48,658 bases of DNA from an uncultured Bacteroides sp. (lineage in GTDB: Bacteria > Bacteroidota > Bacteroidia > Bacteroidales > Muribaculaceae), in NCBI GenBank assembly GCA_964401095.1, contig CAYNXG010000001.1, positions 1-48,658 of the forward strand, in the 5' to 3' direction. A model generated the notes under the pieces. It searched no databases, was not told where the DNA came from, and saw only the letters and a list, made by a program, of their open reading frames with translations. Every line of letters begins with the position of its first letter. Within the stretch, counting starts at the first letter, position 1. A program made the position numbers and the translations under genes. Positions 168 to 11,118 of the stretch are shown in pieces.

Positions 168-716
168 TTATGCTTGCTGCGGATAGAAACTACTCCAATT
201 CAGAGTGTCGGTTGTATTCACGATAGGGAGCGGCGAGTACAGCCAGTTAGAGCCTTGCTGCAAGATGACACCGCCTGCGAGTGGTTGCTCGGTTGTGCTG
301 TTAGTCTTGATGTATTCCAACAAAGCGTTATGCTTTTCAGCAGCAAACATATCGCTGTCTGCACTCTTTGTATCGAAGAGATATATGTGCCCGTTCTTCA
401 TGCGAATAACAAAGTCCACATAGAAAAGTGCCTTTTCACCGCCCTCTCCCCTATTGTATTCAATAGCATAGTTGGCTTTGCCATTATCGCCGTTTTTATA
501 CCACCAGTCAATGTATTGCGAATTGGCTTCAAGGAATTTGACAAACTCCTTTTCAGGAGTCGAGGCGGTGTTAAGCTGAATGAAAGGCAACAGAGCATGG
601 TTTTCAGCCCGGGCAACACTGTTAGTTTCGGCATTATAGACTCTCTGTTCAGGTACTTCCCAATCGTATTCTTTATAAAAACGGTTAGCGGCAGCTCGTA
701 CGGCAGCTAAATATAT
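168..716 (-). pseudogene. 5'-truncated type III restriction enzyme Res-like subunit (C-terminal PD-(D/E)XK endonuclease domain only)
   Basis: Motifs WWYKNGD, FYVDFVI and LFDTK are typical of Res C-terminal nuclease domains. The frame stays open for 42 codons upstream of the called TTG (IYLAAVRAAANRFYKEYDWEVPEQRVY...) to a TAA at 717-719, with no ATG. The helicase portion is absent. Confidence 0.7.
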
Positions 717-764
717 TTATTGCAAATTCATATCTATACATACAAGTATTTGCTCTATTTTATG

Positions 765-772
765 TACTTTTG
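765..772 (+). promoter_or_regulatory. Bacteroidetes housekeeping-sigma -7 element for the NERD operon
   Basis: TACTTTTG matches TAnnTTTG, 77 nt upstream of ATG 850. No well-spaced -33 TTTG was seen. Confidence 0.55.
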
Positions 773-849
773 TAGTCAAAAACTGACAATTCTTCATTGA
801 AAAGGTCACTAAAGAAATAATAGTCGTTTTGTATTGATTTTTTTTTGCA

Positions 850-2928
850 ATGGGAGGACTTTTAGCATTCAGAGTCGGAAACTTTGATACAACAGCAGAA
901 CGTGAACAGTTTCGGTTTCTCTGTGAGCAACTCAAGGCTCACTATGAGGATTCGAATGAGTTCTGTGTGTTCGCAGGCAACTATAATATTGGATGCGAGT
1001 TAGATGCTCTCTTTATAAAGAAGGACGCTATTATTTCTATAGAATTCAAAAATTATGGAGGTAATGTTATTGCCAATGAAAATGGTGAATGGACATGCGA
1101 TGGCAAGGTAATTAAAGGGGGTTCGAGAAAGACTGTTCTTCAGCAAGCTAGGATAAATCATTCTACGGTAAAGAAAGAACTTAAAGTCTTAGGCGTTGAA
1201 AAGAATCAAATCAAGGACGTGCCACACCTTATTATCTTTCATCAACCCATAGAACTGGAGAATAATTTAAGTTCCACCAATAAGTCTTGGCTTCACATTA
1301 CTGATAACGAACATTTCATTGAAAAGTTGGATGACATTACTTGTCCTCATACCGACTTTGATCCACTCAGAATTGTTAATCTTGCGGAAACTCTCAACCT
1401 AAATCCTTTCTACCTAACGGAATTCAGCAATGCTACTTATGACAAACCGACAGAGCCAATTGAGAAAATCAAACTGTTTGAGAATATAAAGAACTACGAA
1501 ACCCATACTGAAGAGAAAAAACAAAACGAAAAACCAAAGGAAAAAGAGGAAGAGTTAAACTTAAATTCTTTTGTAATCGAGAACGAAGATAGTATTGCAC
1601 TTTCGGATTTTGTGAAAAGAATAGTGAGTTTACCGCTCAAACTCGACAATTTTACTGTCAAGGTGCTTGACAGCAGAAGGGCATCCTCATCTTTTGCAGC
1701 ACACGGAATAAGGTTAACTCAAGAATATGTTGTGACTATAAGTGCAGATGGCATAGGTGAACATTGTGTAAAACTCGCAAGGTTCACCAATCATGATGTT
1801 AAAGCTATTTCACCTTCTACAATCTTTTGGGAAGAAGGCGAAAGAATTGCAACCGAAGATGACAATCCATCTGCCGTTATCGAAGAACATCAATCAAAAG
1901 AACTATCAAATACTAATTCGATAGTTTGTTTCCGAAAGTCAAAGACGATTTTGCCACATTGGCTTGACAAAAAGATTTTCAACGACCATCGAGCTATTTA
2001 TGCTCCAGAGCATGAGCGTTATGAGTATAATCTTGATCTCAACGAAGAAGAACTTAAAGTCTATCTTGGTACTTACTTTCCTCGCAGTTATGCAGAGATG
2101 TTTTGTATTGTCGACAATCTTTTGCAGAACAAATACCTGAAAGAAACATTGGAACAAGATGAGATTAGTGTATTGGATTATGGGTGCGGTACAGGTGGTG
2201 AAATTCTTGGCTTGATTACAGCAATTGGAAGACACTTACCTCATACAAAGATCAGCATCACAGCAATAGATGGCAATGATGGAGCTTTAGCCATACTCAA
2301 GGATTTAGTAGAGTGTAACCCTAATAAAAATATACAAGTCGAACTAACTACATTTAGCCAAACATTAGGCTCTATTGAAGACGTGGAAAAACTTGCATTC
2401 GGAAAGAACGATTATCATTTTATCCTCTGTGACAAGATGGTTTGTGAGTTAATTTCTAAAGAAGTCCTACCAATAAATGCATACGCAATAATGGCAAAGA
2501 AACTTACAGCTTTTCTTCATGAAAATGGTTTGCTTATAATGCTTGATGTAACAACTAAAGACGAACATTCAGGATACTTCTATCCTCAATTGATGAATAA
2601 TGCAATAAATGACTATGTTCGTAAAAGCAAAACCATCGAGACGCTTTTGCCGTTGTCATGCGCATGTTATGATGGATGTAGAGACCTTTGTTTTATGCAG
2701 CAAACATTCAGCATAAGTCATTCTCACAAATCAAATGACGAAAGCAGGGTGTGTTATAGAGTGTTGTGTAAGAAACCGCTTAAGACAGCTATCATGCAAG
2801 GGATGGAAACAGCAAACCTTATCCATGTCATACACCCCACCAAATATAAGCAAAATGATGATTTGGCAATTTGCTGCCATTCAAAAAACAATGAAATAAC
2901 AATTGATAGTTTCAACATAAATCTATAA
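850..2928 (+). CDS. NERD-family nuclease fused to a class I SAM-dependent methyltransferase (Rsm22-like), 692 aa
   Basis: The N-terminus has AERE...ELDALF...IEFKNYGG...QQAR (NERD/PD-(D/E)XK pattern), followed by a charged linker. The C-terminus has YLGTYFPRSY, SAM motif I VLDYGCGTGG, AIDGN, and a Cys cluster LPLSCACYDGCRDLCFMQQ. Confidence 0.8.
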   Translation: MGGLLAFRVGNFDTTAEREQFRFLCEQLKAHYEDSNEFCVFAGNYNIGCELDALFIKKDAIISIEFKNYGGNVIANENGEWTCDGKVIKGGSRKTVLQQARINHSTVKKELKVLGVEKNQIKDVPHLIIFHQPIELENNLSSTNKSWLHITDNEHFIEKLDDITCPHTDFDPLRIVNLAETLNLNPFYLTEFSNATYDKPTEPIEKIKLFENIKNYETHTEEKKQNEKPKEKEEELNLNSFVIENEDSIALSDFVKRIVSLPLKLDNFTVKVLDSRRASSSFAAHGIRLTQEYVVTISADGIGEHCVKLARFTNHDVKAISPSTIFWEEGERIATEDDNPSAVIEEHQSKELSNTNSIVCFRKSKTILPHWLDKKIFNDHRAIYAPEHERYEYNLDLNEEELKVYLGTYFPRSYAEMFCIVDNLLQNKYLKETLEQDEISVLDYGCGTGGEILGLITAIGRHLPHTKISITAIDGNDGALAILKDLVECNPNKNIQVELTTFSQTLGSIEDVEKLAFGKNDYHFILCDKMVCELISKEVLPINAYAIMAKKLTAFLHENGLLIMLDVTTKDEHSGYFYPQLMNNAINDYVRKSKTIETLLPLSCACYDGCRDLCFMQQTFSISHSHKSNDESRVCYRVLCKKPLKTAIMQGMETANLIHVIHPTKYKQNDDLAICCHSKNNEITIDSFNINL

Positions 2929-2935
2929 CCTTATC

Positions 2936-4015
2936 ATGGCTAAGAGAAATTTTATGATTAAGGATTCCTTGTTGGATCCATATGAGCGCAAGATACTGAA
3001 CAAGCGAACCGATGAATCATACGTCGTTACTGGTTGTGCTGGTAGTGGAAAATCTCTAATTGCATTGATGAAAGCTAAAGACTTACAAGATAAAGAGAAG
3101 TCCTATTTGATTATCATGTATAATCGTGTTTTGAGTCAGTACATGCATGATGCTATCAAAGAATTGGAATTAAAAGAAGACAACGTTACTACTTATGGCA
3201 AATGCTTTAATTGGAGAAAGAATGAAAATGGAGAATGGGAACTTGGCTCATGGAAACGTGGATATTATGATTACATTCTTGTTGATGAGGCACAGGATTT
3301 CTCTGGAGCAGCATTAGACGAAATTAAGAAACATTGTACTAAGATTTTGATTTTTGGCGATTCTGCACAAAGTCTTTATTCTTCATTTTCATTTGATAAC
3401 AATCCAACGATTAGCATCAACAACATAGCATCAAGGTTTTCTTTGAATACGGAACAACTCATCATCAATCATCGAATGCCGAAGACAATAGCAAGAGTAG
3501 CGCAAAGTTTGAATGAAGAAGATGATGTCCTTGAAGAAAGGTGTGCGAATGATGGTATTGCAAAACCGATTATCATGCAACACATTGACATGGATGCTCA
3601 ATTAGATAGTATCGCCAAGATTATAAAAAACAAAAACCTTGAAAATGTCGGCATCTTTGCATTTTTCAAAAATGAAGTAGAAACAATAGGGGCATATTTG
3701 AGCAATAAGGGATTATCCCCTGAGATTTATCATAGTGACGAAAACATGCAGCTTGATTTCTCAACAAGTAATCCTAAAGTGATGACTTATAAAAGTTCAA
3801 AAGGATTGCAGTTTGAAACGGTATTTATCGTTGGTTGTGATCAAAGGATAGGAGTTGACAAGTCCAAATCACTTTATGTGGCAATGACCAGAAGTTATCA
3901 GGATTTGTTCATTTTTTATTCAGGAGAAATGACATCTTTGTTTGATACTGTAAGTACAGATTTGTATGATACACAATTAGGCGGATCATCAAGCGATGAG
4001 GATTTTGAACTTTAA
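2936..4015 (+). CDS. Small superfamily 1 (UvrD-like) helicase/ATPase, 359 aa
   Basis: Walker A GCAGSGKS, motif II VDEAQD, III FGDSAQSLY, IV INHR, V MTYKSSKGLQFETV, VI LYVAMTRS. Starts 7 nt after the previous stop. Confidence 0.88.
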   Translation: MAKRNFMIKDSLLDPYERKILNKRTDESYVVTGCAGSGKSLIALMKAKDLQDKEKSYLIIMYNRVLSQYMHDAIKELELKEDNVTTYGKCFNWRKNENGEWELGSWKRGYYDYILVDEAQDFSGAALDEIKKHCTKILIFGDSAQSLYSSFSFDNNPTISINNIASRFSLNTEQLIINHRMPKTIARVAQSLNEEDDVLEERCANDGIAKPIIMQHIDMDAQLDSIAKIIKNKNLENVGIFAFFKNEVETIGAYLSNKGLSPEIYHSDENMQLDFSTSNPKVMTYKSSKGLQFETVFIVGCDQRIGVDKSKSLYVAMTRSYQDLFIFYSGEMTSLFDTVSTDLYDTQLGGSSSDEDFEL

Positions 4016-4026
4016 TTAGAAGAAAC

Positions 4027-6276
4027 ATGAAACTCTATATTTTAACTTCAACATTGAATTTCCATTCAATAATGGCGACCGCATCATGCTCGCCATTTGC
4101 CTGTTATACACAAAGAGGGTTCGGAGACTCTTACTTCTATCTCGCTGGGTCATTTGCAAAAAAGAATTCTATAATTCTATTTAGCAAATACCCTAAATGT
4201 ATTATGCCTATTACTGATGAAGAACAATATTCATTGGTTATTGAAGTAGATACAGATAAGACTGCAAATTTTGAATATGAAAAAATAGGCGAACATCATG
4301 ACGTTGTTTTCTACCAAACGAACAAGACAATATATTTGAACCCTATGGGCTGTAAATTGATTTTTGAAACTAATGAAATTCGTGACCTCATCATTTCAAG
4401 AGCCAAAGTAAGAAGTCTTGATGCTAAAGTACTTTTCTATTCAAAAGCAGGAAGTTTTACTACCCAATTTACAGAGTCGTTTACATACCGCAAAGAATAT
4501 ATAGAATCTTTTCCTGATTTAGAATTTGACGAGGAGAACCTTCTCCGTGACAAAAGAGTCAATAAGTGTAAAGGATTCTTGTATGCTTACCTCATAGGTG
4601 CAAACACTTCACCAGGAGAAGGCGTGTCCTGTATGCAGAGGATTCTCAAAGATTTGTCTAATCTGATTCATGCCAGAATCATAAATAACGACTTTAGACT
4701 TCACACTGAGAAGATAAATGAATTACAAAACCAATTTGAGAATGAAGCATGTAAATACGATATTGTCAAAAAGAAACTTGCTGAGTCTGCAAATCGTCTA
4801 AACTCTTCTACTGTTAAAATGTTGCAGAGCGAATTAAAAAGCCTCGGTTTATGGGATGCCTTGGCTCATCGAATGTTCTCTTTGCCAAATTTATCTTCTG
4901 TTTATTCCTCTGAACAATGGAATAATATTGAGTTAATGATTACTCAATTTGTTGACCGTGTTTCATCTGTATCAAACAATCGTTTATTGGTTGATGAGAT
5001 TCCTTTTATCCGTGAGTATGAACCTCCAAAGATTCCTATTCGGGCAAGTAACCAAGAAATGGAGATTTATACAGCATGGATCAAGTTACTTCTGAATCCT
5101 AAGTGTAATTTAAAAGAATTCTTTGCTAACAAACTATCGTATCTGAAGAATCTTGGTATAGTAGCCAAAGATATTATGGGTGATGAGATTTTTGCAAACT
5201 CACCCGAACGGTTTTATTATAATGGCCTCATTAAGAACATCAGAGATGCGGAAGATTTTGATCTTTCATCTCTTAATTCTTTTGTTTGGCAATCATTAGC
5301 AATATGTGCAAAAGCAACAAATCCTAATATTGATGCTCTGTATAGTTTAATGACATCATGTGCTATCGAGGATTATCGTTGTGCAGTAGCAATGTGGGGT
5401 GCAATGTGCGGATATGCTGATCTGCCAAAAACTTTCTTCAACCGAATAATTGAAGGAGTTAGTACGGAAGAAGCCTATCAGTATGCGTGTTGTATAGAGA
5501 AGAGAATACATGGCTTTGAAAGTGCTGCATTCGTTACACAGATTTCTCAATTGCCAAAAGAAACAAATATTCCGCTTACAGAACCATTTGAGTATAGTTC
5601 TCTTGAAGGCATTGTCCATAAGCATCTTACGGAGTATCAAAAGGAAAAAGGAAAGAAATTACCTAAGTCTCATCTTGATTCAATTGAAAAAGCTCTTTCT
5701 TGTACCCACGATGGAACAGTATTGAGTTTTCTTATGAAACTTATTGACTTCCCTGGATTTACAAAGAAGACTAAAACTTCGTTTTGGACATACCTCAAGG
5801 ATAAAACATGTCCAGAATATGATGAGATTACAACTGCAAAAACTAAAAAAAAATCTGCAAAAAACAAGCAAGAATCTTTAGGCTTATTTGATAACATTAT
5901 AGATGAAAATAAAGTTATTTCGCAGGGTGGTGTTGAAAAGCGAAACGTGAAACCAATACATCCAACATCATCTAAATTTGTAGAGGATGCAAATGTTAAC
6001 TATTTTATCCTTTCAAGAAACTACCTACCTATAAAAATGCGAGAAACGCTTTCCAGAAAGGTAATAACATTTCAAAAAGGTTATTCTCATGGTGGTAAAT
6101 ACTGTTCTAATCCATTGGATAACCCTACAGATAATAGATCAACCATTGATCATTTTAAGCATTGGTGTTTTTATGATAAAGGTGGTTATCCTCCTATCGT
6201 AGAGGGAACTTATGAGAATAAAAAGTACTTTGAGCAGTTAATGCAAGATTTATTTAATCGTTATGCCAATAGGTAA
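4027..6276 (+). CDS. Hypothetical protein, 749 aa (possible divergent ADP-ribosyltransferase-like N-terminal domain)
   Basis: Long uninterrupted ORF in AT-rich DNA, 11 nt after the helicase stop and overlapping the next gene by 14 nt. No family confidently recognised. Confidence 0.8.
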   Translation: MKLYILTSTLNFHSIMATASCSPFACYTQRGFGDSYFYLAGSFAKKNSIILFSKYPKCIMPITDEEQYSLVIEVDTDKTANFEYEKIGEHHDVVFYQTNKTIYLNPMGCKLIFETNEIRDLIISRAKVRSLDAKVLFYSKAGSFTTQFTESFTYRKEYIESFPDLEFDEENLLRDKRVNKCKGFLYAYLIGANTSPGEGVSCMQRILKDLSNLIHARIINNDFRLHTEKINELQNQFENEACKYDIVKKKLAESANRLNSSTVKMLQSELKSLGLWDALAHRMFSLPNLSSVYSSEQWNNIELMITQFVDRVSSVSNNRLLVDEIPFIREYEPPKIPIRASNQEMEIYTAWIKLLLNPKCNLKEFFANKLSYLKNLGIVAKDIMGDEIFANSPERFYYNGLIKNIRDAEDFDLSSLNSFVWQSLAICAKATNPNIDALYSLMTSCAIEDYRCAVAMWGAMCGYADLPKTFFNRIIEGVSTEEAYQYACCIEKRIHGFESAAFVTQISQLPKETNIPLTEPFEYSSLEGIVHKHLTEYQKEKGKKLPKSHLDSIEKALSCTHDGTVLSFLMKLIDFPGFTKKTKTSFWTYLKDKTCPEYDEITTAKTKKKSAKNKQESLGLFDNIIDENKVISQGGVEKRNVKPIHPTSSKFVEDANVNYFILSRNYLPIKMRETLSRKVITFQKGYSHGGKYCSNPLDNPTDNRSTIDHFKHWCFYDKGGYPPIVEGTYENKKYFEQLMQDLFNRYANR

Positions 6277-7315
6277 AATTATTATCACGAACGATACAGG
6301 TGAACAAGTAGAAGCTACAGCTCCTGTCATTGTCTCTGCAAGTCGTTCAACCGATATTCCTGCCTTTTATGCCAAGTGGTTCTTCAACCGCTTGGCTAAA
6401 GGGTATTGTGCTTGGTATAATCCGTTCAACCAGCAGAAAATGTATATTTCGTTCAAAAACTGCAAGGTGGTGATTTTCTGGACAAAAAACCCAAAGCCGA
6501 TTCTCCCATACCTTCATGAGCTTGACGAAAAAGGAATACACTACTACTTTCAGGTTACACTCAACGATTATGTAAAAGAAGGTTTTGAGCCTAATGTTTC
6601 GTCTGTCGAAAACAGAGTTGAGACATTCAAGAAACTTTCTGATATGATTGGTAAGGAGAAAGTAATCTGGCGTTTTGATCCTTTAATAATTACGCCAAAC
6701 ATTGCTCCTCGTGACATCTTGACGCGCATTTGGCGCATTGGAAATAAACTGAAGGGTTACACAAATAAGCTTGTATTCAGTTTCGTTGATGTAAAAGCAT
6801 ATCGCAAGGTTCAAAACAATCTTGTTAAGGAAAGTATGCTCTTTACAAAGGAGAATGTGGAGAATGCCGAAGCCAACCTTGCTCAACGAATAGAAATTGT
6901 AGAAGGTCTTCAAAAGATTCGTGAAGCTTGGCACAAAGATGGTTGGGATGTTGAAATCGCCACTTGTGCTGAAAATATTGACCTTGAAAAATACGGGATA
7001 GAACACAATCGTTGCATTGATGGCGAATTGATGAAACGCATTTTTGCTGACGATAAGGAACTTGTCTATTATCTACATACATTGAAATTACCAGAAAAAG
7101 ACTTGTTTGGTAATTTGCCACCAATACCAGAGAAGGTGCGTAATGTAAAGGATACAGGGCAACGTAAGGTATGTGGATGTATGGTCAGCAAGGACATCGG
7201 CATGTATAATACTTGTCGTCATTTCTGTGTCTACTGCTATGCCAATACAAGTAAAGAATGCGTCATCCGAAATGCTGAGAAACATAATGATGAAAGTGAA
7301 AGTATAATTGGGTAA
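6263..7315 (+). CDS. DUF1848 family protein (radical-SAM/spore-photoproduct-lyase-related), 350 aa
   Basis: Family signatures VSASRSTDIPAFY, FWTKNP and WRFDP, plus C-terminal KDTGQRKVCGC..SKDIGMYNTCRHFCVYCYAN containing CxxxCxxC. Confidence 0.88.
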   Translation: MPIGKIIITNDTGEQVEATAPVIVSASRSTDIPAFYAKWFFNRLAKGYCAWYNPFNQQKMYISFKNCKVVIFWTKNPKPILPYLHELDEKGIHYYFQVTLNDYVKEGFEPNVSSVENRVETFKKLSDMIGKEKVIWRFDPLIITPNIAPRDILTRIWRIGNKLKGYTNKLVFSFVDVKAYRKVQNNLVKESMLFTKENVENAEANLAQRIEIVEGLQKIREAWHKDGWDVEIATCAENIDLEKYGIEHNRCIDGELMKRIFADDKELVYYLHTLKLPEKDLFGNLPPIPEKVRNVKDTGQRKVCGCMVSKDIGMYNTCRHFCVYCYANTSKECVIRNAEKHNDESESIIG

Positions 7316-7317
7316 TT

Positions 7318-8985
7318 ATGCAAGAGTCAGAACTACAACAATATCTCCTTCGCAACTATCCACAAGAGAATGCTCGTTGCGAATGGAAGGAATTCAAGAA
7401 TTTGAAGGACTCATTCTGTGGGGATGAGAAAAACGATGTCATCTCATAAGTGTCGGCTATTGCCAATATGGAAGGAGGGCATTTAGTGATAGGGGTACAT
7501 GACAGTTCTTTGGAAATTGTCGGGACAGATACCGATAATTATGACTGGCAAAAGGCAATTCTTCGTTTAACGGAACGATGTGTTAATCTTTCGACAGAAG
7601 GTCTCGATATTGAAGAGTTTGTTACCGATGACACTAACAAGAAAGTTTGGGTAATACATATTCCCAAGCATCGTCCCAAATTGCCTGTTTACGCTCATAA
7701 CAAAGCATGGCAGCGAATTGAAGATTCTCTTGTAGAGTTGACCACTGAACGCATGAATGTCATTCTTGATGAGCCAATATTTGGTGAAACAGATTGGTCT
7801 GCACAGATTGTTCCTGATGCAACGATAGATGACCTTGACGAAGTTGCTATAGCTAAAGCCCCCAAAATGTTTAAGAAGGTACATAGCCGTATTCCCGAAT
7901 CCGAGGTAAATGCTTGGGATATTCAGACATTTCTTGGCAAATGCGGACTAACAAGAAATGGAAGCATCACTCGTGCCGCTATCATATTGTTAGGCAAATA
8001 CGAATCAGCCTTTAAACTGCGCCCTGTTGTCGCTCAGGTAACCTAGACACGCAGGGATGCAAATCAAGATGTGGTTGACTACGAACATTTCACTGTTCCA
8101 TTCATACTGACAGTAGATGAAATTCTCTCAAAGATTGAAAATCTGACTTTGCGTGAAATGCCTGGTGGTACGCTTTTCCCAGATACAATGAAGCAGTATG
8201 ATGACTACACGATACGCGAAGCACTTCATAACTGTATTGCTCATCAAGATTACACGATGCAACAGCGTGTCAATTTCGTTGAGAATCCCGGCTATTTATA
8301 TTATTCCAACGCCGGTACTTTCATCCCCGGAACTTTGGAAAATGCTTTGAGAAATGAGGAATCTCAGACCTATTTCTGCAATGAATGCCTATGCAAGGCA
8401 ATGGTGGACTTCAATATGATTGATACCGTAAGTCGTGGCATCAAGAAAATGTTTAATGAACAATGGCGCAGACACTTTCCGATGCCGGACTACGAGATTG
8501 ATGCGGCGAAAAAGAAGGTTGTAGTACGCATATATGGTAACGAGATCAATAAGCGATATACGGATTTATTGAAGACCGACAACACTCTGTCATTATGGGA
8601 TTGCATATCTCTCGACGCTGTACAGAAAGGCAGATTCATACATGAAGATGTTGCAAAAGACTTGCTGAACAGGGGACTTATTGAGGGCGATGCTCCCAAT
8701 TATACAATTTCTTTAGGAGTTGCTAAAGCTACTCGTCAATTGCAAGGTTACACCAAGCAAAAAGGACTTGATAAGGACAAAATTAAACAAATGGTTTTGC
8801 AATATCTTAAGAATGCAGGATCAGATGGCGCTAAACGTGATGGCATCTACGAATACATCAAAGATGTAATGCCGCAAGCTAAAACACGGGAACAGCAATT
8901 GAGGATATTAGGAGACATTCTTAATGCTCTAAGTGTAGATAAACTTATTTTTGCTAATGGGCGAACTTGGTTCTTGAAAGAATAA
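7318..8985 (+). pseudogene. AlbA_2 (Schlafen-like) + HATPase_c_4 (RecG-C-like) + wHTH protein, disrupted by two in-frame stops
   Basis: A single frame runs from ATG 7318 (MQESELQQYL...CEWKEFKNL...DVIS). It is broken by TAA 7447-7449 (VIS*VSAIANMEGGHLVIGV) and TAG 8044-8046 (QVT*TRRD), and later has IREALHNCIAHQDY. It would be 555 codons if repaired. Confidence 0.85.
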
Positions 8986-9138: not shown

Positions 9139-9420
9139 ATGTTATTAGTAGACAAAATAAAAGAGTTGAGAGAAGAACACGGTGTGTTACAAAGGCAATT
9201 GGCAGCTTTGCTTGATATAGGCACTCGAATGTTTAGCAAAATAGAGCGTGACGATAGATATGCCAAACGGACACAAGTAATACAATTAGCTGAGTATTTC
9301 AATATTGATAAAAATGAACTTCTTACACTATGGCTGGCAGACAAAGTATTGGATGCTATAGAAGATGAAGACGAATTAAAGCAAAAAGCCATTGAGGTTG
9401 CACAAGAAAGAATAGACTAA
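9139..9420 (+). CDS. XRE-family helix-turn-helix transcriptional regulator, 93 aa
   Basis: KIKELREEHGVLQRQLAALLDI...FSKIER HTH pattern. The LWLADKV tail is characteristic of Bacteroidales XRE proteins found next to RM loci. Confidence 0.85.
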   Translation: MLLVDKIKELREEHGVLQRQLAALLDIGTRMFSKIERDDRYAKRTQVIQLAEYFNIDKNELLTLWLADKVLDAIEDEDELKQKAIEVAQERID

Positions 9421-10014: not shown

Positions 10015-11118
10015 ATGGCACTTCAATGCGGCATAGTAGGACTGCCCAATGTGGGCAAGTCGACACTTTTTAACTGTCTCTCCAATGCAAAGGCTCAATC
10101 GGCCAATTTCCCGTTCTGCACAATAGAGCCTAATGTCGGAGTCATAACTGTACCCGATGACAGGTTGACAAAACTGGTTGAGATGTGTCAGCCCAAAAGC
10201 GTGGTGCCCGCTACGGTGGAGATTGTCGACATAGCCGGCCTCGTAAAAGGAGCAAGCAAAGGCGAGGGCCTCGGCAACAAATTTCTCGCCAACATACGCG
10301 AGACCGACGCTATAATACATGTATTGCGCTGCTTTGATGACGACAACATAACCCATGTGGACGGAAGTGTCGACCCGGTGCGCGACAAGGAGATAATAGA
10401 CTACGAGCTGCAACTCAAAGACCTTGAGACAGTAGAAGCCCGTATAGCCAAGACGCAGAAGCAGGCCCAGACAGGAGGCGACAAGACGGCCAAGATGCAA
10501 TATGAGGTGCTGTGCCGCTTCAAAGAGGCCCTCGACCAAGGCAAGCCCGCACGTTCGGTGACATTTGACGGCGTGGACGAGCAGCGGTTTGCCCGTGACC
10601 TGTTTCTGCTCACCAACAAACCGGTGCTTTACGTGTGCAACGTCGACGATGCGTCGGCAGCCACAGGCAACAGCTATGTCGAGGCTGTCAAGGAAGCTAT
10701 AAAAGATGAAAACGCACAGCTTCTTATAGTGGCCGCACAGACCGAGGCCGACATAGCGGAGCTCGACACATGGGAGGAGCGTCAGGAATTTCTAAATGAG
10801 ATAGGCCTTGAAGAGTCGGGAGTAAGCCGACTTATACGCTCGGCTTACGCACTGCTTAACCTACAGACATATTTCACGGCAGGTCCCGACGAAGTGAGAG
10901 CGTGGACATTCATGCGCGGCTCCAAAGCACCGCAATGTGCCGGCATTATACACACCGATTTCGAGAAAGGCTTCATCCGCGCCGAGGTCATCAAGTATGA
11001 CGACTATGTGTCGCTCGGCGGCGAACAGGGCGTGCGCGAGGCCGGCAAGCTCGGCGTGGAAGGCAAGGAATATGTGGTGCAGGACGGCGATATCATGCAC
11101 TTCAGATTCAATGTCTGA
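10015..11118 (+). CDS. ychF: Ribosome-binding ATPase YchF (Obg family)
   Basis: [36 protein letters not shown], and a TGS-domain end [19 protein letters not shown]. Confidence 0.98.

Follow-up and report, generated by a model that had tools for sequence, protein, structure and literature searches.

The window analysed here, a stretch of 48,658 nucleotides from an uncultured Bacteroides sp., carries four neighbouring genes whose combination raises two questions: do they form one functional unit, and what could such a unit do? An initial annotation had read them as a candidate undescribed system built from a nuclease-methyltransferase fusion, a helicase, an unknown protein, and a radical SAM-like protein.

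Layout and Integrity of the Four Genes

The four open reading frames lie on the forward strand at 850–2928 (gene A, 692 aa), 2936–4015 (gene B, 359 aa), 4027–6276 (gene C, 749 aa), and 6263–7315 (gene D, 350 aa). Genes A and B are 7 nt apart, genes B and C 11 nt, and genes C and D overlap by 14 nt, which agrees exactly with the intact, co-oriented arrangement described initially. The AT-rich island noted at the same time was also found, with a GC content of 0.36 in the cassette vs. 0.57 genome-wide. Contigs from 4/4 sequencing runs (four studies, each a possible source of the DNA of the window) covered 850–7315 with zero differing letters; we therefore rejected misassembly or a base-calling mistake as the origin of the residue at position 19 of gene C. 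In the four RNA runs listed, only 15–20% of the sequence words were present.

A promoter-like TAnnTTTG element of putative function stands upstream of gene A at 765–772 on the forward strand, and we take it to be the Bacteroidota −7 consensus. The same element was also seen upstream of ychF in four of the seven relatives shown. The single promoter element proposed for the block was found as a motif, but a sigma-70 scan was no better than chance (42 sites vs. 33.4 ± 6.9 by chance), and a terminator scan likewise stayed at chance level.

Co-Occurrence and Spread of the Cassette

We examined 82 loci, which are the neighbourhoods of gene C relatives; kin are included, so the counts are not independent. 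Conserved co-occurrence, which the initial annotation had proposed to look for around the homologues, was observed: all four genes were found together in 64 of the 82 loci (44/52 among the well-flanked ones). The helicase accompanied gene C relatives in 79 loci, the methyltransferase in 70, and DUF1848 in 70. Complete cassettes occurred in three gene orders (55, 6, and 3 loci), and gene C stood without the methyltransferase and DUF1848 in five loci (L020, L058, L061, L067, and L081). The four genes are a real, intact, and conserved unit.

The distribution is patchy: gene C was not found in any of the 60 relatives searched, yet near-identical DNA is present in Alistipes and Bacteroides genomes, and the carriers include gut and environmental bacteria. 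The cassette is mobile and modular. It is not mainly phage-borne, because only two viral-contig loci were found.

The genes flanking the cassette had been described as broken. Downstream, a gene with AlbA_2 and HATPase_c_4 domains (7318–8985, forward strand; Pfam) has two in-frame stops; it is an optional fifth gene, which is intact directly after gene D in 5/82 loci. Upstream, a restriction-endonuclease-like gene is left as a C-terminal fragment (168–590, reverse strand), but its "type III Res" label is not firm, the family matches being weak (E 0.005–0.05). Homology to relatives begins at 708, so this fragment lies outside the shared module. We rejected ychF as a shared insertion site, since no cassette locus except the window has a ychF orthologue (one weak GTPase match).

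Gene C Is Predicted to Combine Two ADP-Ribosylation-Related Folds

Gene C has many relatives (974 clusters at 50% identity, E ≤ 0.001). No significant family match was obtained in Pfam, PADLOC, NCBIfam, or ESM Atlas, the best E-value against PDB sequences was 0.23, and Foldseek with the gene C model returned nothing at E ≤ 0.001. The predicted structure (AF2 pLDDT 84.4) nevertheless points to an ADP-ribosyltransferase (ART)-like and an ADP-ribosylhydrolase (ARH)-like fold, both missed when the protein was called unknown. They are followed by a helical C-terminal domain (5959–6276, forward strand), whose exchange between copies is separate from that of the remaining gene.

Residues 1–153 (4027–4485, forward strand) matched four DarT structures with Z 8.5–9.5, among them DarT1 8baq (Z 9.5, rmsd 3.3, 131 aligned) and DarT 7omv (Z 8.8). 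The DarT profile (PF14487) gave no Pfam match in 46 gene C members, with an hhalign E of 0.36. Residues 175–497 (4549–5517, forward strand) resemble ARH3/DraG: seven ARH-family chains were found in the top ten rows (Z 9.1–12.6, residues about 175–497), and a four-helix bundle is inserted at residues 197–318. According to the tool's note, the score of the best match, ARH3 6g1p (Z 12.6, rmsd 3.2, 192 aligned), is one that helical proteins may attain through a common arrangement. Foldseek also placed ARH3 first for this part, with an E of only 0.28. The hhalign comparisons of gene C with the DarT and ARH alignments did not reach significance (E at best 0.36 and 0.005). Because these and the comparison with the Pfam 2Comp families are weak, the homology of gene C rests on folds, motifs, and context. 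Gene C is thus predicted to join a DarT-like ART fold and an ARH3-like hydrolase fold in one protein.

Such a fusion could be an active ADP-ribosylating toxin that reverses its own action; the helicase would place it on nucleic acid, and genes A and D would regulate it or prepare its target. The presence of both folds in one chain is consistent with this explanation, and Pfam calls the sister domains transferase and glycohydrolase. In the accessible part of PMC9967889, the residues described for DarT are the adenosine-ribose binders T15 and N19, Y71, and the required H13 and E160. T7 and N11 of gene C correspond to T15 and N19, and an aromatic residue at 52 corresponds to Y71. T7, N11, R30, E73, and K134 are conserved in the ART part, with hardly any variation at E19, R30, E73, and K134 (kept in 137, 139, 128, and 142 of 142 rows). 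However, with the register taken from motif spacing, the H13 position has no His or Arg (Ile in 124/142 rows), and the inferred E160 position has no conserved Glu vs. Glu in 15/15 DarT rows. The binuclear Mg motifs of the ARH family (PF03747), GDA, TDD, and DxDT, were also not found in gene C, whereas 12/12 true ARH rows have all of them; in a register set by the terminal motifs, 103/142 gene C rows have Ala in place of the GDA Asp, and DxDT is not conserved. Both domains therefore apparently lack the canonical catalytic residues, and we regard an active toxin as unlikely. The charged residues E19, R30, E73, and K134 would suit a binding pocket and an atypical active site equally well. Because the window copy alone carries Ala in place of E19, which hardly varies elsewhere, this copy of the cassette may be weakened.

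The predicted folds link gene C to the Pfam families 2CompART and 2CompARG, and the likely chemistry shifts towards NAD+/ADP-ribose recognition.

The Helicase Is Exchanged Together with Gene C

Gene B is a minimal SF1 helicase/ATPase according to the Pfam SF1 helicase families (2936–4015, forward strand). Its Walker A (G33–K39) and Walker B (D117–E118) motifs are invariant. The closest solved relatives of its profile were HelD (E 3e-20), UvrD, Rep, PcrA, and GajB, and HelD was also matched in NCBIfam.

The predicted complex of the gene B and gene C proteins scored 0.77, and the best of three controls scored 0.00. The score mark is passed by 116/157 solved complexes and 2/215 mismatched pairs, figures that hold only roughly with our own alignments. 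The runs shared at least 78% of contacts, with a partner pLDDT of at least 84. The predicted interface includes gene B residues 228–237 and 261–265 and gene C residues 212–220 and 404–411. Helicase B is thus predicted to bind the gene C protein.

DNA comparison by blastn revealed a swapped segment, which covers most of gene B and gene C to about residue 627 (3092–5906, forward strand). In loci L003, L004, and L006 no match to the window exists in this segment, whereas identity on its two sides is 88–90% and 97%; the breakpoints lie near 3091 and 5907. The corresponding protein identities are 94–95% for the methyltransferase and 97–98% for DUF1848, vs. 47% for the helicase, 37–38% for the ART part, and 23% for the ARH part. 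An Alistipes putredinis strain is a natural chimera with near-identical genes A and D and different genes B and C. The helicase and gene C are exchanged jointly between cassettes whose identity elsewhere is 90–97%, and these natural alleles permit a direct comparison on whether the two genes set specificity.

The Methyltransferase Fold and Its Optional Nuclease

Gene A (850–2928, forward strand) consists of a NERD nuclease domain, a linker domain, and a SAM methyltransferase fold. The NERD domain (residues 24–130; 919–1239, forward strand; Pfam E 2.7e-8) belongs to a part in which E17, D52, and E65-x-K67 are intact, and these motifs are retained in 12/12 NERD fusions. The methyltransferase-fold core (residues about 363–640; 1936–2769, forward strand) has the motifs YLGTYFPRS, GxGTGG, DGN, and KxxCE. 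Its Pfam match (E 2.2e-5) falls under the cut-off, and Atlas features assign it at 0.97 to class I SAM methyltransferases. Its relatives match the N-terminal part of the PADLOC RT_UG35 (E 7e-10 to 3e-7) and RT_UG25 models. C604, C610, and C614 form a clade-specific Cys insert.

The initial annotation had put a nuclease and two Fe-S enzymes at the heart of the system. Neither nuclease-led restriction nor a pair of Fe-S enzymes is core, because NERD occurs in 12/82 loci and the Cys insert in about half of the copies (32–33 of 67 rows). About half of the locus methyltransferases are bare domains of 260–300 aa, and the fusion partner varies between NERD, PIN (a few), and none. NERD was rejected as a core part; it is an accessory fusion.

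The Cys insert presumably resembles the METTL17 cluster site; Pfam gave no Rsm22 match in gene A at E ≤ 1. One explanation would direct the cassette at RNA or transcription: its ATPase would be HelD-like, its methyltransferase Rsm22/METTL17-like, and the two would act on RNA polymerase or ribosomes. Among solved structures the helicase profile indeed matches HelD best, and PIN RNase fusions occur. However, HelD (774 aa) aligned to gene B over its motor part only, and the insert is missing in 35/67 rows. We consider this explanation highly improbable.

Gene D Resembles Radical SAM Enzymes

Gene D (6263–7315, forward strand) is a DUF1848 protein (Pfam E 1.9e-92; model pLDDT 92.7). Its C318-x3-C322-x2-C325 motif (7214–7237) is C-terminal rather than N-terminal; the three residues are invariant in 44 rows, together with four further invariant Cys. 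The 19 best VIA rows for the barrel were radical SAM-type enzymes by title, with modest scores (Z 7.8–9.2, rmsd 3–7), and Foldseek with the same model gave generic TIM barrels only. Spore photoproduct lyase was tied with others (Z 8.5). Residues 1–236 of the model match lyase residues 124–341, which fits a permutation. The early suggestion of a radical-SAM-like protein therefore gains support from motif and model, and the prediction for gene D is a radical SAM enzyme in circularly permuted form.

Two SAM-using folds within one cassette might indicate a non-canonical restriction-modification (RM) system. Here, genes A (through its methyltransferase fold) and D would give self DNA a new mark, and the helicase and gene C (with NERD where present) would attack unmarked DNA. 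Both folds are present in the 64 complete loci, DUF1848 aligns with spore photoproduct lyase, which is a DNA-acting radical SAM enzyme, and the NERD catalytic residues are intact. In addition, L058 and L061, where both SAM enzymes are absent, sit inside BREX clusters. Motif IV of DNA methyltransferases is DPPY/NPPY or PC, and type I–III RM needs an endonuclease. However, neither DPPY/NPPY nor PC is among the conserved methyltransferase columns, and most copies are without a nuclease. Moreover, the helicase and gene C are swapped while the supposed writer is unchanged, which would uncouple the mark from its reader. An RM system thus appears improbable to us.

Defence Context

We compared the nearest four ORFs per locus with PADLOC-DB 2.0.0 (2023) at a flank match threshold of E ≤ 1e-40. 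Matches were found for 28/236 flanking ORFs, spread over 20 of 67 loci, and the other 47 loci had none among these ORFs. Named systems stand beside 14 loci: BREX (four), type I RM (two), Abi (four), Kiwa, SoFic, CRISPR-associated, and retron RT. In the controls, 1/57 ORFs (1/15 loci) around stand-alone DUF1848 genes and 0/25 host ORFs matched PADLOC. The loci thus lean towards defence surroundings, in line with the enrichment that the initial annotation had suggested checking.

DUF1848 itself is found in 50/300 genomes of the order, and about 15 of 20 sampled loci are without a partner by profiles, mostly amid housekeeping genes. For this reason, DUF1848 is not defence-specific, and the cassette might be a module for DNA or nucleotide damage repair or stress that rides mobile DNA and has no immunity role. 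A lyase-like radical SAM fold beside a UvrD-like helicase would suit such a module. By contrast, genes B and C diverge fast and swap alleles (median pairwise identity of 25% in the ARH part across relatives), nuclease and RT fusions occur, and the defence neighbours exceed those of the control loci. A repair or stress role is therefore very unlikely in our estimation. We conclude that the cassette is probably a defence system, whose mechanism we infer below.

The four genes as a set matched no PADLOC system, and no paper describing the cassette was found, in keeping with the earlier statement that it is not a named system. No paper was found under the Pfam/InterPro identifiers of the families either; the work behind the Pfam 2Comp names may already cover the sister cassette described below. 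PMC10853773, in its accessible part, and PMC13056530, in which a term search gave no occurrences, have no bearing on the cassette.

A Possible Mechanism

A tentative mechanism, to which we give somewhat less than even chances, is that the SF1 ATPase and the ART/ARH protein serve as an exchangeable sensor which switches on a SAM-dependent output of the gene A methyltransferase fold and the permuted radical SAM enzyme. The ATPase would bind the ART/ARH-fold protein, and the cassette as a whole would be directed against phages or other invading DNA. Both domains of gene C would have lost canonical catalysis and may instead act as binding pockets, the ligand being NAD+, ADP-ribose, or a nucleic acid that is modified or ADP-ribosylated. 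Ligand binding would gate the ATPase, and the activated complex could license radical or methyl chemistry on nucleic acid or a nucleotide. The fused NERD domain, where present, would add nuclease action, and the infected cell would be stopped.

A bolder version, which would make the cassette a new class of immunity, seems rather doubtful: a dead writer-eraser fusion on an SF1 ATPase would read phage ADP-ribosylation or NAD+-derived signals and fire a permuted radical SAM toxic effector, and nucleases, helicases, and RTs would all plug into the methyltransferase fold as their common socket.

If the cassette is a defence system, it would couple the recognition of NAD+/ADP-ribose with radical SAM chemistry, and no paper on this combination was found. 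It would also give DUF1848 a first testable role and account for the methyltransferase and DUF1848 that accompany the UG25/UG35 reverse transcriptases.

Comparison with Known Systems

Gabija shares with the cassette a small SF1 ATPase (gene B matches GajB, E 3e-19) and, in the window copy, a nearby nuclease. However, the cassette has no match to the OLD/TOPRIM protein GajA, its nuclease is an optional NERD domain, and the predicted partner of its ATPase is the ART/ARH protein. Type I–III RM systems differ in that the cassette is without motif IV among the conserved columns and its nuclease is optional. DarTG (DarT with DarG or NADAR) is similar in the DarT fold, in the T15/N19/Y71-like positions, and in a writer fold beside an eraser fold. 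The eraser of the cassette, however, is ARH-type and fused, equivalents of H13 and E160 were not found, and there are three extra genes.

Iyer et al. (2022, PMC9503650), in the available part of the article, proposed that ARG-centred systems counter viral ADP-ribosylation. These systems likewise place an ARG fold in conflict neighbourhoods of varying content, to which nucleases and helicases may or may not belong. In that part, however, no coupled ART accompanies the ARG, which instead occurs alongside phosphatases, chaperones, and Nudix/WYL regulators; the cassette has no such members. Mestre et al. (2022, PMC9226505), again in the accessible part, reported class 1 UG/Abi RTs with an N-terminal methyltransferase and either DUF1848 (UG25) or a UvrD-like helicase (UG35). 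The PADLOC models of these systems match gene D (E 5e-42), gene B (E 2e-14), and the methyltransferase relatives. In contrast to the systems as described there, the four cassette proteins have no RT match, both partners are present at once, and an ART/ARH protein is added.

A further likeness is to the Pfam families 2CompART (PF22546) and 2CompARG (PF22545), labelled "2-Component system", which likewise place an ART-like and then an ARG-like domain in one chain. The term "2Comp" is absent from the text of PMC9503650 and its one supplementary file. Gene C and 45 relatives match neither Pfam model, staying below the cut-offs; the N-terminal motifs align by eye, with a weak profile match (E 0.0015, probability 16%). 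A four-helix insert and different C-terminal domains also set gene C apart, and the cassette methyltransferase is of another subfamily (E 2.7e-4). By our own observation, the 2Comp gene in 9/9 loci is immediately preceded by a minimal SF1 helicase and immediately followed by a methyltransferase-fold gene, and DUF1848 lies upstream in five whole and in two more cut by contig ends. An ART-like and ARG-like fusion beside a helicase, a methyltransferase fold, and DUF1848 is thus common to both, this context not being the authors' definition. The 2Comp proteins with the same partners are a sister cassette.

Conservation of the Four Genes as a Unit

The cassette occupies 850–7315 on the + strand and consists of A (NERD plus methyltransferase fold, 692 aa, 850–2928), B (minimal SF1 helicase, 359 aa, 2936–4015), C (749 aa, 4027–6276) and D (DUF1848, 350 aa, 6263–7315). 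We built a search profile for C from 46 homologues and compared it with GTDB genomes, which gave 105 matching stretches; 80 were kept, and two loci from viral contigs were added. The loci were mostly from Bacteroidota, with a few records labelled Clostridium, Oscillospiraceae, Desulfovibrio or Alphaproteobacteria. Partners were sought on the strand of C, no more than 5 kb away, with profiles seeded by the window's proteins and then rebuilt from the same loci. The helicase was found in 79/82 loci, the methyltransferase and DUF1848 in 70/82 each, and all three in 64/82, in agreement with the initial annotation, which had treated the genes as one candidate system. Where the locus extended 4.5 kb or more upstream and 1.5 kb or more downstream, all three partners were present in 44/52. 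The gene order was A-B-C-D in 55 loci, A-D-B-C in six and D-A-B-C in three.

C occurred without A and D in five loci. B was present in four of these, two of them inside BREX clusters; in L061 (3576–16,684) and L058 (4324–17,905), loci from other genomes or viral contigs, the helicase and C lie between pglX and pglZ. The L061 pair adjoins a PLD-domain gene. Relatives of C number 974 among clusters at 50% identity, but C was not found in any of 60 host relatives searched. Cassettes also decay: in L035, L051, L075 and L039 either C is split, or the helicase is truncated and the methyltransferase missing.

Large DEAD/RecQ-like helicases adjoin C in L080 (13,096–16,545) and L081 (3905–9121). The N-terminus of the former resembles, by eye, the methyltransferase of the sister cassette described below; L081 has a C of 966 aa with a weak Sel1 match and no SF1 helicase.

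Layout and Borders in the Window

The initial annotation is confirmed for the four ORFs, for the gaps of 7 nt and 11 nt and the overlap of 14 nt, and for the AT-rich surroundings; the island stops just short of ychF at 10,015. Contigs from 4/4 sequencing runs cover the cassette with zero differing letters, although each run may itself be where this DNA came from. The downstream AlbA_2 plus HATPase_c_4 gene (7318–8985) has two stops. The upstream restriction-like fragment matches families only weakly and lies outside the DNA common to the window and its relatives, which begins at 708. In five loci (L003, L006, L036, L039, L073) an intact AlbA_2 gene follows directly on DUF1848, to which it is coupled; it is possibly an optional fifth effector.

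An XRE-family HTH gene (93 aa, 9139–9420) has close homologues after the cassette in L032, L041 and L045. At the contig start, a short element (1–55) is covered at high depth, continues in many different ways in the runs and has an 85% copy on another contig, C2; it resembles the terminus of a repeated mobile element.

Joint Exchange and Predicted Binding of B and C

B and C are exchanged as one block. The DNA of L003, L004 and L006 matches the window at 88–90% over about 708–3091 and at 97% from 5907 on, with no match between. Protein identities were 94–95% for the methyltransferase and 97–98% for D, against 47% for B, 37–38% for the ART part of C and 23% for its ARH part. In 75 locus pairs B was 75% identical or more; two of these pairs had an ART part below 55%. 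A reverse break near 5910 in L036 and L002 indicates that the last domain of C also moves separately.

Binding of B to C is supported by prediction. The model of B (1–348) with C (1–500) scored 0.77 against 0.00 for the best control, a mark that 116/157 solved and 2/215 mismatched pairs reached, rates that hold only roughly with the alignments used here. Runs shared at least 78% of contacts, with partner pLDDT of at least 84. B retains all SF1 motifs, and its closest solved relatives are HelD, UvrD, Rep, PcrA and GajB. A system directed at RNA or transcription might be read from HelD and is the least probable alternative.

Folds and Pocket Residues of C

In the AF2 model of C (pLDDT 84.4), residues 1–153 align with four DarT structures, DarT1 among them (Z 9.5, rmsd 3.3 over 131 residues). 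Residues 175–497 align with seven ARH-family chains, including ARH3 (Z 12.6, rmsd 3.2 over 192 residues), and the model places an inserted four-helix bundle at 197–318. Foldseek ranked ARH3 first (E 0.28), and profile comparisons were not significant.

By motif spacing, T7 and N11 of C would correspond to DarT T15 and N19, reported to bind the adenosine ribose (PMC9967889), and the aromatic residue at 52 to Y71. In the same register, the H13 position is Ile in 124/142 relatives and no conserved Glu stands at the expected E160 position among the 142. The ARH Asp motifs, present in 12/12 true ARH sequences, were not found in C. The catalytic residues of both folds have apparently been lost. An active ART toxin, which the DarT-like fold would suit and this apparent loss would not, is unlikely. 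Inactive ART-family members PARP9 and PARP13 act in animal antiviral defence (PMC10789625), which we cite as an analogy only.

E19 (137/142), R30 (139/142), E73 (128/142) and K134 (142/142) are near invariant, which suggests a pocket under selection. One residue tally was circular for N11, I15, E19 and S20, which the locus search pattern required; the 142 proteins came from a profile search that did not use it. In the window, C has Ala19, and its 92% identical cluster has Glu.

A SIR2-like gene is inserted between C and DUF1848 in L007 (8810–9928, E 5e-5), and a true ADP-ribosylglycohydrolase lies 4 kb downstream of the cassette in L056 (10,683–11,501). These are further links of cassettes to NAD+/ADP-ribose.

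Proteins A and D

NERD, which the initial annotation had counted as a core part, was found in only 12/82 loci and is accessory. Elsewhere the methyltransferase comes bare, with a PIN domain, or with an N-terminal domain that has no name. The A core keeps the SAM-binding glycine motif, DNA-methyltransferase motif IV was not found in it, and a cysteine insert is present in 32–33/67 rows. A non-canonical modification-restriction system could draw on the SAM-binding motif and NERD, sits poorly with the missing motif IV and the rarity of NERD, and is slightly less probable than the toxin.

D has an invariant C-terminal CxxxCxxC. The top 19 rows for its model (pLDDT 92.7) were radical SAM-type enzymes with modest Z (7.8–9.2). 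Residues 1–236 match spore photoproduct lyase 124–341, as expected if the cluster loop had been relocated to the tail, given the position of the lyase's cluster motif. DUF1848 is held by 50/300 genomes of the order, which counts against a defence-only role. Among 20 DUF1848 loci, three were this cassette, two had a methyltransferase-fold neighbour and 15 had no partner by the profiles used here. The same genomic site occurs with and without a methyltransferase-fold gene upstream of DUF1848 (L195, L196), which suggests that some stand-alone genes are remnants.

Defence Neighbourhood and Proposed Mechanism

The scan of flanking ORFs took up to four ORFs of 180 aa or longer from each locus, no farther than 5 kb away, and covered 236/252 selected ORFs in 67/72 loci. 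Six near-duplicates and a locus lacking flanks had been dropped beforehand, and three more loci had no qualifying ORF. The neighbourhoods tended towards defence genes: 28/236 ORFs matched PADLOC at E ≤ 1e-40, in 20/67 loci, against 1/57 ORFs flanking 15 stand-alone DUF1848 loci and 0/25 host ORFs, counts to be read with the kinship among loci and the small control set in mind. Named defence systems were present in 14 of the 20 loci. A repair or stress module would agree with the wide spread of DUF1848 and less with these flanks, and is improbable. The cassette is probably a defence system, whatever its scheme.

The most likely scheme, which we put forward tentatively, is that B and C would form a swappable sensor binding either modified nucleic acid or a ligand of the NAD+/ADP-ribose type. 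Once bound, they would gate ATP use, A and D would give a SAM-dependent output, and NERD would be an added effector in the window's copy. The make-up of the cassette, its linkage, the exchange and the genomic context are observations, the folds and the B–C interface are model predictions, and the ligand, the sequence of steps and the outcome are inferences.

Comparison with Known Systems

The folds of C, its apparent residue loss, the joint exchange and predicted binding of B and C, and the accessory status of NERD were tested in this analysis. No PADLOC 2.0 system matches the four-gene set, in keeping with the initial annotation, which had not recognised it as a named system. No description of the cassette was found in the open-access literature searched, and this search did not find the source paper of the Pfam names 2CompART (PF22546) and 2CompARG (PF22545).

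In family searches PF22546 exceeded the cut-off in 2/401 genomes and PF22545 in 8/401. The fused 2CompART/2CompARG protein has a minimal SF1 helicase before it and a methyltransferase-fold gene after it in 9/9 distinct loci, a count that leaves out L105, a sub-cut-off match without helicase, methyltransferase-fold or DUF1848 partners. DUF1848 leads in five of these sister cassettes, is cut by the contig end in two, is not visible in one and is absent from one. A sister cassette without DUF1848 (L087, 2116–11,873) has as its flanks one gene for an HD-CE plus HSP90-like ATPase and another for a 2OG-Fe(II) oxygenase. C is matched by neither Pfam model but has the same fold order, motifs and neighbours, and we place the window's cassette in the 2CompART/2CompARG system, as a divergent clade.

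UG35/UG25 RTs are reported to be fused to a methyltransferase and to have a UvrD-like helicase or DUF1848 as partner (PMC9226505). They have two parts in common with the cassette, and 5/9 A relatives tested match the N-terminal part of the PADLOC UG35 or UG25 RT models. Given this overlap and the Pfam names for the sister ART/ARG domains, we regard the cassette as a version of a kind already known, though uncharacterised.
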